From Escherichia coli (GTDB taxonomy: Bacteria; Pseudomonadota; Gammaproteobacteria; Enterobacterales; Enterobacteriaceae), in assembly GCF_045037415.1 (NCBI RefSeq), contig NZ_CP173438.1: a DNA stretch of 64,000 nucleotides; one strand, given 5' to 3'. Within the stretch, counting starts at the first letter, position 1. Each line of letters starts with the position of its first letter. The translations under genes were made by a program, and so were the position numbers. Below, one piece after another: positions 11,527 through 46,562 of the stretch. The notes beneath the pieces were generated by a model, which saw nothing but the letters and a program-made list of their open reading frames with translations, was not told the DNA's origin and did not search any database.

Positions 11527-12756
11527 CCCTTCGTGCGAATTTCCCATCTGTTTATCTTTTAAAAAGATAACCATCAGCGACAGCCACAAAATGCCGTTGA
11601 CAAGGTTGAAGAGATTAAACAGTCCGTTGCCCCCGTTCAGCCAGGCATGTTTGCTGATTTCAATACCGACGGTAAAGATCAGCATTTGCAGCATCCCCAT
11701 CGCCGCAGAAACCGTACCTTTACTCATATCGCTGGCAAACAGGGTTAATCGCACCAGTCCCGCATTCGCCAGACCAATACCGAAAGCATAAATACTTAAC
11801 CCGGCGGTCATCCATAAATACGCGTGCGATGAGATAACCGTTGCCGCAGCAGCGACCAACAGACCAATCATAATCGGCCAGCCGCCCATAATAATCAGCG
11901 AACGTACGGTGCGGCGCGAGGTCAGACGCGCTAACAGCAAGTTACCCGCAATTAACGCCCCAAAAATAGGCACTTGCAGCAGGCCATATTCATAGCTGCT
12001 CAACTGCTCACCGGTAATAATGATAATCGGCGACTGGGCGATCCACGCCAGCAACGGCAGGCTAACGAATCCCAGCGCCAGCGCCCCCGCCACAAAGCGA
12101 CCGTTCTTCAGCACCAGCTTATAGTCACGACCGAGTTCTTTCAGCGACAGTTTCTCGCCTATACGCGTGGCGGTTTCAGGCATAGCTCGTTGCAGACCGA
12201 AAAAGGAGATCGCTGCCAATGCGGCAAACAAGACAAACATCCCTTCCCAGGGCAGCACATGGATCCACGCCGCGCCCACCAGCGGACCAAGTAGTGGAGC
12301 AATCAGCGCCACGTTCGCCATTAGCGCGGTGATCTTGATACAAACCGCCTCTTCGAAGGATTCCTGAATTGCGGCGTATCCCACAGCGCCAATGAAACAG
12401 AGGCTTATACCCTGCAAGAAGCGCAACAGGGTGAATTGTTCAATGTTTTGTGCCAGTAATATTGCCAGACAGGTGACGATAAACCACACCACTCCCGCCA
12501 GCATCACCGGACGGCGGCCAATACGATCCGACAACGGCCCCAGGAGCCATTGTAAAAACATCCCGCCCGCCAGATACGCAGTCATCGAAGTAGGAACCCA
12601 ATCAATGCCCGCCTGATATTGTTCCACCACGGCCAACATACCGGGTTGAATCATATCGTTGCCGATATAGGTTGAAAATTCGTAAAGCACCAGACAGAGA
12701 GGGAAAAGTAACGCCTGACGTCCAAGCCTGGCACCGGAAGCTAATTTATTTTGCAT
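11524..12756 (-). CDS. mdfA: Multidrug efflux MFS transporter MdfA (Cmr)
   Basis: ORF track 11524..12786(-); ATG at 12754-12756 gives 410 aa [27 protein letters not shown]... Confidence 0.94.
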
Positions 12757-13040
12757 GCAATTTCTTCGCCAATAATAATCGCGCAAAGTTTAATAAAAGC
12801 GCAGCTAACGAGAAAGCGAATTTTGTAGCTGAAACCACGGTTAAGCACATTCTTACATTATTGCGAGTATAGCTACGCTTTCTTTAAGTTTTATTTAACC
12901 TTTGCCCGTTACAATCACCTACCGTAAACAGGCCGCTTGAGGGAAATAAGACGATGCCGCTTTACCCAGTTTAACCTGCACTTTATTCTCAACGACTTGC
13001 CTGTATTGGCTCCCTTTTAATCACTTTGCGTCGGGAAGTT

Positions 13041-40203: not shown

Positions 40204-41322
40204 TTATCCCGCCGGGATCATAACCAACAAAACATATCCCACCAGCGCCGCCCACAACAGCATCGGTATCGAATAAAGATGAAAACGCCACCAGATACGG
40301 CGATCGTTCGCCATCCGTAACGCAATCAAATTTGCCAGCGATCCGGGTAATAAACCAAAGCCACCTACGTTTACCGCCCATGCCAGTAATAAAGACGGTG
40401 GCACATAATTGAGCAGCAAAATGGTACTCGGCACGTTACTGATCACCTGCGATAAACCGATCGCCGTTAGCCATAATCCGGGTTCGGATAAATGACTCAC
40501 GTTACTTAACACCCCCTGCAAAACTGGCAGTTGGGTTAGTAAATGGACGTCGATAAACATCGCCATAAACACCAGCAGCAGCGTCCAGTCCACACTGAGC
40601 ACCACGCGACGCGCCAGCAGCGCAAAGCCCGCCGCCACAATCACCAGTCCCCACAGCTCTTGTTTTAACTCCAGCGCCGTCAGAAAGACGATATACAGCC
40701 CCAGACAACTCCACACCAGCCGCGGTTTCCACTCCGGCGTTTGCCCTCCTGTATGGTACTGCAGCGCCTTTCCAGGGAAACAACACCAGCACAACAGCAG
40801 GAGTGTCAGCATCATTGCGCCAGCCAGCGGTGCCATTTGGGCAATAAATCCGGCAAACGAAAGACCAGAACGTCCCCAGATAAGAATATTTTGCGGGTTG
40901 CCAATTGGCGTCAGTAGCGAACCAGCATTGACTGCCAGCGCCTCAAAAATAATCAGCCGATTAACCGGGATCTCACACAGTCTTTTTAGCGTGATAGTCA
41001 GCGGAACAACTATAAACAGCGCGACATCGTTGGTCAGAAAGGTAGAAAGCAGCGCCGCCGCCAGTACCATAAACATCGCCAGCCGACGCTCCGTAGCAAA
41101 ACGGCGCACCATTTTGCGCCCCAGCACATCAAAATAACCGCTTAACTCGACACCTTTAGTCAGCAGCATCAGGCCGCTTAAGGTGATGATGGTGTGCCAG
41201 TCGATAGCAGCAGGCCAGGATTTCGGTGCAAAGGGAACGAAAAAACTTAATCCGATGCCAACAAGAATTAATAACTGAAAAAAACGATCGCCTTGCAGCG
41301 TGCGTAAAAAAGGCAGGCTCAT
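40204..41322 (-). CDS. ybiR: Putative anion transporter YbiR (ArsB/NhaD permease superfamily)
   Basis: ORF track 372 aa polytopic membrane protein; start overlaps mntR stop by 4 bp. Confidence 0.9.
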
Positions 41323-41786
41323 TTGGCACCGTGTTTCTGGGTAAACAAACGAAAGGCATCCAGCGTCTCTTCACTAACATGGTGCTCCATACCTTCCGCG
41401 TCGCGACGGGCGATTTCCGGACTGACGCCCAACACCAACAAGAAATTTTCGACTATCTGATGTCGCTCGCGGCTTTCCTGCGCCAGCTTCTCTCCTTCTG
41501 CCGTTAAAAACACGCCACGCCAGGGGATCATTTCAATCAGCCCCATGGTTGCCAGTCGCTTAAGCATTTTAGCCACCGTCGGTTGCGAAACCCCCAGACG
41601 AGCAGCCATGTCTACCTGACGAGCTTCCCCCACTTCCCTGATCAAGTCAGAAATCAGCTCAACATAATCATCAATAAGCTCGCGCCGATGCGCCTCTCTG
41701 ACCTGGCGGAACCCTTCAACGTGCTCTTCCACGTTCACTAACTGCGTCACTTTTTTTGCTGTTGGCGTACCTGCGCGACGACTCAT
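41319..41786 (-). CDS. mntR: Manganese-responsive transcriptional regulator MntR (DtxR family)
   Basis: ORF track 155 aa [28 protein letters not shown]...; ATG confirmed at 41784-41786. Confidence 0.95.
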
Positions 41787-41879
41787 TATGCTTCCTCATT
41801 ATGGTGACGCATACATAGCGTTCTCATTTCGTGCGCACATTGTAAACCAGAGTTGCGAAGGTACAAAAAATTAACGTTT

Positions 41880-41918
41880 TAGCAATAGCTATATAATATA
41901 GCCTGTGCTATATCTGTA
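41880..41918. promoter_or_regulatory. Probable MntR operator(s) in the mntS promoter
   Basis: Overlapping palindromes ATAGCTAT and ATATAGC-CTGT-GCTATAT, resembling the ATAGC-N4-GCTAT core of MntR boxes; about 55-90 bp upstream of the mntS ATG. Confidence 0.6.
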
Positions 41919-41971
41919 TGTAATGCAATCATCCCTCAAGGATCGATGGGATTAGCAAGTCAGGAGGTCTT

Positions 41972-42100
41972 ATGAATGAGTTCAAGAGGTGTATGCGCGT
42001 GTTTAGTCATTCTCCCTTTAAAGTACGGTTAATGCTGCTCTCTATGTTGTGCGATATGGTCAACAACAAACCGCAGCAGGATAAACCTTCCGATAAATAG
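41972..42100 (+). CDS. mntS: Small protein MntS (42 aa), manganese homeostasis; below the ORF-track size cut-off
   Basis: ATG 41972 preceded by AGGAGG; translation MNEFKRCMRVFSHSPFKVRLMLLSMLCDMVNNKPQQDKPSDK; stop TAG 42098-42100. Confidence 0.85.
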   Translation: MNEFKRCMRVFSHSPFKVRLMLLSMLCDMVNNKPQQDKPSDK

Positions 42101-42136
42101 CGGCGTCGCGGTACGCCGCTTCACTCCTGCTTTTAT
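42098..42136 (+). terminator. Possible mntS terminator hairpin
   Basis: AGCGGCGTCGCGGTACGCCGCT stem-loop followed by a T-rich stretch. Confidence 0.35.
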
Positions 42137-42371
42137 GCAGGCACAACGCGTTTTGGTCTGAAAAACCCCACTTTTTGTCGGATTTGCAATCCCCTTCGCA
42201 AAAGATTTGTTCGTCGGTAGTTGACCTGAACAGCAGCTCGCTCTATCTTCTTGCAGCCCTGCGTATATTGCGGCTCGCGGATGCGGACCCCTTTCCCCTC
42301 TTCACGCACTCTTGCAGGTATTGACCCTTGACGCCAGGGTAAGCACATGGCGTTTGTTACGATAGTGGCAT

Positions 42372-43955
42372 ATGAATTTAACCCTCAAAGAATCGCTTGT
42401 TACCCGTAGCCGGGTATTTAGCCCGTGGACTGCGTTCTACTTTTTACAGTCGCTATTAATTAACCTCGGCTTAGGTTACCCCTTCAGTTTGCTCTACACC
42501 GCTGCGTTTACGGCTATTTTGCTTTTGCTATGGCGAACATTGCCTCGCGTACAAAAAGTTCTGGTCGGTATCAGTTCGCTGGTGGCGGCTTGTTATTTCC
42601 CTTTTGCTCAGGCCTACGGCGCGCCTAACTTCAATACATTGCTGGCATTGCACTCCACCAATATGGAAGAGTCGACCGAAATCCTGACGATTTTTCCGTG
42701 GTACAGCTACCTGGTCGGCATATTTATTTTTGCGCTCGGCGTAATAGCAATCAGGCGAAAAAAAGAGAGTGAAAAAGCGCGCTGGAATACCTTCGACAGC
42801 CTGTGCCTGGTATTCAGTGTGGCGACATTTTTTGTTGCTCCCGTGCAAAACCTGGCCTGGGGCGGCGTATTTAAACTGAAAGATACTGGCTATCCGGTAT
42901 TTCGTTTTGCTAAGGATGTCATCGTCAATAATAACGAGGTGATTGAAGAGCAAGAACGGATGGCAAAACTTTCCGGAATGAAAGATACCTGGACGGTCAC
43001 TGCCGTTAAGCCGAAGTATCAGACCTATGTGGTGGTGATCGGAGAAAGCGCGCGTCGCGATGCCCTCGGTGCCTTTGGCGGTCACTGGGACAATACCCCG
43101 TTTGCCAGCAGCGTTAACGGTTTGATATTTGCTGACTACATTGCCGCCAGTGGCTCCACGCAGAAATCGCTTGGCTTAACGCTCAATCGCGTTGTCGATG
43201 GCAAACCACAGTTTCAGGATAACTTTGTCACCCTGGCAAATCGCGCGGGCTTCCAGACCTGGTGGTTTTCCAACCAGGGTCAAATCGGCGAATACGATAC
43301 CGCCATCGCCAGCATCGCCAAACGAGCAGATGAAGTGTACTTCCTGAAAGAAGGTAATTTTGAAGCAGATAAAAACACGAAAGACGAAGCGTTACTGGAT
43401 ATGACCGCTCAAGTGCTGGCGCAAGAGCACTCGCAACCGCAGCTGATTGTTCTACATCTGATGGGCTCGCATCCGCAGGCCTGCGACCGGACACAAGGAA
43501 AATACGAAACCTTTGTGCAATCGAAAGAAACGTCGTGCTATCTCTATACCATGACGCAAACAGACGATTTACTGCGCAAGCTGTACGATCAGTTACGCAA
43601 CAGCGGCAGCAGCTTCTCGCTGGTTTACTTTTCTGACCACGGTCTGGCCTTTAAAGAGCGCGGCAAAGACGTGCAATACCTTGCTCATGATGATAAGTAT
43701 CAGCAAAATTTCCAGGTGCCTTTTATGGTCATTTCCAGCGACGATAAAGCGCATCGGGTGATTAAAGCCCGCCGCTCGGCCAATGACTTCTTAGGCTTTT
43801 TCTCGCAGTGGACGGGAATTAAAGCGAAGGAAATAAATATCAAATACCCGTTTATATCTGAAAAGAAAGCCGGGCCGATATACATCACCAACTTCCAGTT
43901 ACAGAAGGTGGATTACAACCATCTCGGAACCGATATTTTCGACCCGAAACCTTAA
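42372..43955 (+). CDS. opgE: Phosphoethanolamine transferase OpgE (YbiP)
   Basis: ORF track 527 aa; N-terminal TM helices plus periplasmic sulfatase-like domain. Confidence 0.93.
   Translation: MNLTLKESLVTRSRVFSPWTAFYFLQSLLINLGLGYPFSLLYTAAFTAILLLLWRTLPRVQKVLVGISSLVAACYFPFAQAYGAPNFNTLLALHSTNMEESTEILTIFPWYSYLVGIFIFALGVIAIRRKKESEKARWNTFDSLCLVFSVATFFVAPVQNLAWGGVFKLKDTGYPVFRFAKDVIVNNNEVIEEQERMAKLSGMKDTWTVTAVKPKYQTYVVVIGESARRDALGAFGGHWDNTPFASSVNGLIFADYIAASGSTQKSLGLTLNRVVDGKPQFQDNFVTLANRAGFQTWWFSNQGQIGEYDTAIASIAKRADEVYFLKEGNFEADKNTKDEALLDMTAQVLAQEHSQPQLIVLHLMGSHPQACDRTQGKYETFVQSKETSCYLYTMTQTDDLLRKLYDQLRNSGSSFSLVYFSDHGLAFKERGKDVQYLAHDDKYQQNFQVPFMVISSDDKAHRVIKARRSANDFLGFFSQWTGIKAKEINIKYPFISEKKAGPIYITNFQLQKVDYNHLGTDIFDPKP

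Positions 43956-45884: not shown

Positions 45885-46562
<678 letters not shown>

Follow-up and report, generated by a model that had tools for sequence, protein, structure and literature searches.

The feature at 41972–42100 of the window, by which we mean the whole stretch of 64,000 nucleotides that was analysed, is almost certainly the Escherichia coli mntS locus, in which a promoter probably covered by MntR operators drives the RybA/mntS transcript and this transcript is translated into the small protein MntS. The identification draws on results of the present analysis: the identity of the gene, the sequences and geometry of the operators with their statistical and phylogenetic support, the selection on the coding sequence and the conserved synteny. 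No evidence contradicts it, and its weak points are matters of detail. The gene is already known, as are its operators for MntR and MntP, the target of its product; all have been experimentally characterised since 2011.

Identity and genomic context of mntS

The window is part of the E. coli chromosome, and its segment 41300–42400 was matched in 5421 of the 5426 complete E. coli genomes, in many of them at 100%. The genes annotated under these matches are ybiR, mntR, mntS and opgE. The open reading frame under study encodes a protein of 42 amino acids (MNEFKRCMRVFSHSPFKVRLMLLSMLCDMVNNKPQQDKPSDK) and is the same, base for base, as the RefSeq mntS coding sequence of strain SK1144 (WP_001001761.1, "manganase accumulation protein MntS"), positions 2173–2301 of locus L001 corresponding to 41972–42100 of the window. 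A first reading of the letters, hereafter the sequence-only reading, had proposed a 42-codon mntS gene at this place and a comparison with the annotated gene as a check; the coordinates of the RefSeq coding sequence and of the open reading frame coincide, the protein is identical to that of K-12, and its match to the NCBIfam equivalog NF033226 (small_MntS) reaches 96 bits over residues 1–39 of 42, well above the cutoff of 36 (E = 6.3e-28). We found 136 homologues named MntS across the Enterobacteriaceae. The homologues in the protein database carry Pfam PF26599 (MntS), and a scan of the 42-residue query with a local copy of Pfam returned no match. The same reading had called the protein invisible to size-filtered ORF calling, which no longer holds, since PGAP now calls mntS through a dedicated HMM.

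Analysis of the neighbouring genes confirmed that mntS is divergent from mntR, as had been proposed. The mntR product scored 269 bits against the MntR equivalog NF008273 (cutoff 153) and contains the Pfam domains Fe_dep_repress and Fe_dep_repr_C; the gene overlaps the start of ybiR. In the genome of K-12 MG1655, mntS (b4705) is annotated inside a 340-nt non-coding RNA gene, rybA (b4416, 852725–853064), with the same neighbours, that is, ybiR and mntR on the divergent side and opgE downstream. The window and the K-12 mntS region are colinear and 99% identical; the 601 aligned bases contain 10 substitutions and not a single indel. The 3' untranslated region holds most of these substitutions; one lies in the 5'UTR, and a single synonymous CAG/CAA change separates the two reading frames. 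The operators, the Shine-Dalgarno site and the hairpin after the stop codon are identical, and no difference is functionally significant. The locus is the K-12 mntS/rybA locus itself and not just related to it, and the defining features that can be tested from sequence are all present. The positions of all features are collected in Table 1.

Table 1. Features of the mntS region and of the dps promoter in the window, with mean identity to E. coli in the interspecies alignment
Feature	Position	Strand	Description and basis	Mean identity to E. coli
mntR	41319–41786	-	155-aa ORF, Mn-sensing DtxR-family regulator (NF008273, Pfam, RefSeq)	
Intergenic space	41787–42371		space between divergent genes; mntS lies within it	
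Segment 41861–41876	41861–41876			91%
MntR site A	41877–41894	.	imperfect 18-bp dyad TTTTAGCAATAGCTATAT, one mismatch to ATAGC-N4-GCTAT	88% (eight other genera)
Candidate -10 of the mntS/rybA promoter	41892–41897	+	TATAAT, consensus hexamer across the A/B junction	
MntR site B	41896–41913	.	ATATAGCCTGTGCTATAT, perfect 7+7 arms with 4-bp spacer, exact ATAGC-N4-GCTAT	99% (eight other genera)
Predicted promoter towards mntR-ybiR	-35 41924–41919; -10 41900–41895	-	sigma-70 type, ATTACA and TATATT, 18-bp spacer	
Segment 41914–41924	41914–41924			97%
Rest of intergenic region and 5'UTR				59–61%
RybA/mntS transcript	41905–42244	+	340 nt, transferred from the K-12 rybA annotation; encloses mntS	
Shine-Dalgarno sequence	41962–41967	+	AGGAGG, 4 nt before the mntS ATG; read directly	
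mntS	41972–42100	+	42 codons and stop, ATG start (RefSeq, NF033226, dN/dS)	78%
Hairpin after mntS	42099–42120	+	GC-rich, GCGGCG-N8-CGCCGC, overlapping and following the mntS stop (fold, conservation)	89%
MntR box of dps	45994–46011		exact core, ACATAGCTGGTGCTATAC; ending 48 nt ahead of the start codon of dps (46059)	

MntR operators upstream of mntS

The two MntR sites lie 59–95 bp upstream of the mntS ATG and are separated by the single base 41895. The repeat finder reported a perfect inverted repeat, ATATAGC-N4-GCTATAT, that coincides with site B, a 15-nt pair of 80% complementarity (41880–41894 and 41896–41910) centred on 41895, and a recurrence of GCTATAT as a direct repeat with a spacing of 19 bp. 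The palindromes had been described as overlapping, an appearance that arises from a third dyad formed by the right half of site A and the left half of site B. They had been placed at 41880–41918, with boundaries that proved inexact, 3 bp too short on the left and 5 bp too long on the right.

To score the sites we used a symmetrised MntR matrix built solely from the K-12 mntH box and the two K-12 mntP boxes, a crude model of three sites. Among the 63,983 positions of the window, site B ranked first with 20.3 bits, a score reached by none of 200 null sequences of 64 kb. Site A ranked second with 15.7 bits, and 8% of the null sequences held an equal or better best match; alone it is statistically marginal, and it is supported by its exact 19-bp register with site B and by conservation. 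It also resembles box 1 of K-12 mntP, ATTTAGCCAAAGCTATGT. Only 0.04 copies of the exact pattern ATAGC-N4-GCTAT are expected in the window, and two are present, a number that none of 100 shuffles reached; the second copy is at the dps promoter.

The palindromes might in principle be chance products of AT-rich promoter DNA, where palindromes are commoner, or sites of another regulator, and the frequency with which null sequences equal the score of site A would be in keeping with this. Such an origin is barely conceivable, since the matrix that placed the two sites at the top of the window came from unrelated loci, the second exact copy lies at dps, which is known independently to be controlled by MntR, the boxes hardly vary among the nine genera, in contrast to their drifting flanks, and published statements and reporter data favour control by MntR (PMC11275975, PMC9806134, PMC4207228). 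The statistics and the footprint together exclude chance. The sequence-only reading had taken the ATAGC/GCTAT palindromes for the signature of MntR operators and had suggested a scan with an MntR matrix; the ranking obtained by that scan, the conservation and the published description of mntS agree on this point. [quoted passage not shown]

Other candidate elements around the operators were rejected. A Fur box judged by eye at 41919–41935 (TGTAATGCAATCATC) matches the Fur consensus poorly, and other genera do not preserve its AATCAT part; a study of the Fur regulon reports no Fur control of mntS (PMC4676285). A third MntR site at 41915–41932, in 19-bp register after site B, was absent from the ten best matrix matches. 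The half-site ACATAGC at 41813–41819 is specific to E. coli, lacks a partner half and is not conserved.

The third-ranking matrix match of the window, ATTTTGCTTTTGCTATGG (42516–42533, 13.8 bits), lies in the coding sequence of opgE, some 600 bp downstream from the operators of mntS. Its score is near the mean best null score of 13.0, and the match is probably due to chance.

Conservation of the locus in other enterobacteria

The corresponding loci of Salmonella, Citrobacter, Klebsiella, Kosakonia, Kluyvera and Trabulsiella and of two enterobacterial contigs were fetched through their MntS homologues. All eight share with the window the gene order ybiR-mntR on the minus strand followed by mntS and an opgE-like gene of the sulfatase family on the plus strand. 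The mean identities (Table 1) show that the operator and promoter block is more conserved than the coding sequence under its control.

The near-invariant block, 41861–41924, is wider than the two MntR boxes, and a promoter directed towards mntR-ybiR is predicted on the minus strand within it. We tentatively suggest, as a possibility that we consider somewhat doubtful, that the same operators may control both divergent promoters, in which case mntS, mntR itself and ybiR, the gene of a putative anion transporter, would all be repressed by MntR. Reports of mntR autoregulation in E. coli were not found in the searchable literature.

The mntS promoter and the RybA transcript

The candidate -10 hexamer ends 7 nt before the 5' end of rybA as annotated in K-12, which, when the position is transferred to the window, maps to 41905, within site B. 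Upstream of this TATAAT no -35 hexamer could be recognised, and none of the promoters called by the scan lies there on the plus strand. The exact assignment of the promoter is uncertain because Salmonella has TAAAAC at the position of the hexamer.

One correction to the sequence-only reading is that the mntS open reading frame lies inside an annotated non-coding RNA, rybA. On northern blots RybA appeared as seven species, from 205 to about 400 nt long, that share their 5' end (PMC4361602). Our Rfam scan of 41000–43000 (E <= 1) returned no family, hence no curated RybA model or riboswitch, and the fold of the whole 340-nt RNA (z = -0.61 against shuffled sequences) gives no support for a global structure.

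Coding potential and translation of mntS

Purifying selection on the mntS reading frame is strong. In pairwise comparisons by the Nei-Gojobori method, codons 1–35 gave a median dN/dS of 0.11 (range 0.04–0.25, 30 usable pairs, nine genera), and the wrong frames of the same DNA gave 1.34 and 3.49 with 2–6 stop codons. The variable columns of the alignment number 22, 14 and 32 at the first, second and third codon positions. In the protein, the conserved blocks are MNEFKRC, VF(S/T)HSPF, VRL, LC and KPQ, followed by a C-terminal tail that is variable in sequence and length. The product of the window and those of the eight other genera form a length class of about 41–44 residues, with MNEFKRC at the N-terminus, HSPF (Pro15-Phe16) and LC at positions 26–27. 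The PF motif is the one highlighted in a published logo of MntS.

Translation signals and published experiments point in the same direction. The strong AGGAGG ribosome-binding site that had been claimed for the gene is present, and a motif of the GGAGG type stands 4–7 nt upstream of the mntS ATG in all nine aligned genera, within a 5'UTR that is otherwise about 50–60% conserved. An untranslated reading frame, named beforehand as an outcome that would speak against the gene, is contradicted by published mass spectrometry: the peptide VFSHSPFKVR (residues 10–19) was detected by a targeted assay in low Mn only, at about 6000 copies per cell, and was detected neither in high Mn nor in a delta-mntS strain (PMC12529367). 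Chromosomally tagged MntS was likewise detected upon Mn limitation (PMC4361602). Moreover, the Mn-sensitivity phenotype of mntS is lost upon a frameshift at Phe11 or Phe16 and is independent of Hfq (PMC4361602).

These data bear on the question of whether the RybA transcript could act mainly as a base-pairing regulatory RNA, with the 42-codon reading frame incidental or secondary. K-12 annotates the region as non-coding RNA; Gerstle 2012, as far as it is cited in PMC4361602, proposed that RybA controls genes of aromatic amino-acid biosynthesis under peroxide stress; and Martin et al. leave room for a role as sRNA in other contexts (PMC4361602). We nevertheless judge an RNA with this main role improbable. 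Selection acts on the reading frame, and in its own frame only, and the conserved parts of the RNA are this frame and the hairpin after the stop codon, the remaining 5'UTR and 3' region being conserved at about 50–60%. The weak global fold and the lack of an Rfam family also argue against it, as do the effect of the frameshifts, the dispensability of Hfq and the detection of the protein by mass spectrometry.

The region between mntS and opgE

Folding of 50 nt around the hairpin that follows the mntS stop codon gave -21.9 kcal/mol (z = -3.47). In most genera the hairpin is followed by TTCATTTTT, which is terminator-like, and in E. coli by TTCACTCCTGCTTTT, in which the T-run is interrupted. The hairpin is probably a terminator or a 3' stabiliser. 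A terminator scan of 41700–42400 called none, and in E. coli no canonical T-run follows the hairpin. Degradation of the T-run in E. coli, and leaky termination with it, may account for the published ladder of RybA species from 205 to about 400 nt. After the interrupted T-run, E. coli has a second small hairpin, CCTGC-N6-GCAGG, in the region 42099–42141.

Further downstream, the segment 42195–42249 between mntS and opgE contains a conserved element resembling an inverted repeat, TTTGCAA...TTCGCAAAA, and a conserved GTAGTTGACC, the conserved elements occupying about 42200–42228. The latter sequence includes the -35 hexamer, TTGACC, of a promoter predicted on the plus strand at 42221–42249, and the 3' end of rybA (42244) falls inside this promoter. 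It is probably the opgE promoter with a site for a regulator.

Other MntR boxes and related systems

Apart from mntS, dps is the sole known target of MntR in the window; the motif picks out its box as well, which ranked fourth with the MntR matrix and provided an internal positive control. The dps product was confirmed by NF006975 (309 bits). Repression of dps by MntR is attributed to Yamamoto 2011 in PMC5553809, and dps is an MntR target in the RegulonDB curation (PMC4207228).

Comparison of the known MntR boxes revealed that all carry the ATAGC-N4-GCTAT core in an 18-bp dyad, namely ACATAGCAAAGGCTATGT at mntH, ATTTAGCCAAAGCTATGT and ACATAGCTTAGGCTATAT at mntP and the dps box. Their arrangement differs from gene to gene. 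At mntH and dps there is a single full match each, whereas the mntS boxes abut, with a gap of 1 bp, and, by the published description, overlap the promoter, which fits repression. The mntP boxes start 39 bp apart; they are described as activating sites that lie upstream of the promoter at a distance of about 170 bp (PMC11275975). The mneP and mneS operators of B. subtilis resemble that of mntS in being composed of 18-bp sites, made of 9-bp inverted repeats, that stand 1 bp apart, and in B. subtilis this geometry of 18+1+18 bp lets neighbouring dimers touch and bind cooperatively (PMC11275975). They differ in that up to four sites activate exporter genes in B. subtilis, whereas two sites repress the gene of a small protein at mntS.

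The region upstream of mntH in K-12 (12745–12790 of locus L011) shows an additional upstream half-site, GCATAGC, and a Fur-box-like element, GATAATCATTCTC, beside the MntR box. This arrangement fits the published dual control of mntH by Fur and MntR. No conserved Fur-like element comparable to that of mntH was found at mntS in the alignment of nine genera.

Published function of MntS and proposed mechanism

Published experiments have shown that mntS is repressed by MntR and Mn, that its reading frame is translated and that its product binds and inhibits MntP. The RegulonDB curation records repression of mntS by MntR under manganese treatment (PMC4207228), and a PmntS-egfp fusion was repressed by Mn only when mntR was present (PMC9806134), a result that answers the Mn-dependent reporter assay suggested by the sequence-only reading. 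The phenotype of MntS requires MntP, and the two proteins bind each other in two-hybrid and reciprocal pull-down assays; MntS is an inhibitor of this manganese exporter when manganese is scarce (10.1101/2023.06.02.543501). The mntP gene is present in 5422 of the 5426 complete E. coli genomes and is not within the window.

An earlier hypothesis, outlined in the introduction of PMC4361602 and repeated in PMC4676285, regarded MntS as a cytoplasmic manganese chaperone for client proteins including MntR, and not as an inhibitor of MntP. The conserved residues E3, C7, H13, C27 and D28 are potential metal ligands, and a published abstract states that MntS self-associates with Mn present. We consider this role very unlikely, since it is contradicted by published data on ligand mutants (PMC4361602), MntS binds MntP directly, and overexpression of MntS causes no Mn sensitivity in cells that have the heterologous exporter MneA in place of MntP (delta-mntP::mneA) (10.1101/2023.06.02.543501).

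With MntS as the inhibitor of MntP, the locus would work as follows. At high cytoplasmic Mn2+, two Mn-loaded MntR dimers would occupy sites A and B and switch the mntS promoter off, and the 1-bp gap suggests that in E. coli they probably bind cooperatively. Occupation of either site would be expected to exclude RNA polymerase; we infer such promoter occlusion because the 5' end of rybA is inside site B and the TATAAT bridges the junction of the two sites. At low Mn2+, MntR would leave, the mntS/RybA RNA would be transcribed and MntS would be translated from its strong Shine-Dalgarno site. Binding of MntS to MntP would then inhibit the efflux of Mn and raise its intracellular level.

MntS reportedly originated as the long signal peptide of a SitA linked to MntR, SitA being the periplasmic Mn-binding subunit of SitABCD (10.1101/2023.06.02.543501). 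The SitA signal peptides of Rahnella, Sodalis and Yersinia have 40–45 residues and the PF motif, were linked to MntS by profile searches and can replace MntS, and the divergent link to mntR is common to both. MntS is less hydrophobic than these signal peptides and has retained neither the AXA cleavage motif nor the mature SitA domain (10.1101/2023.06.02.543501).

Significance

Practically all E. coli genomes have mntS annotated. The correct recovery of the 42-codon gene and its operator architecture from raw sequence serves as a positive control for the scan and matters little as a discovery. The locus is a textbook case of a small protein that regulates a transporter, and of a gene that arose from the remnant of a signal peptide.
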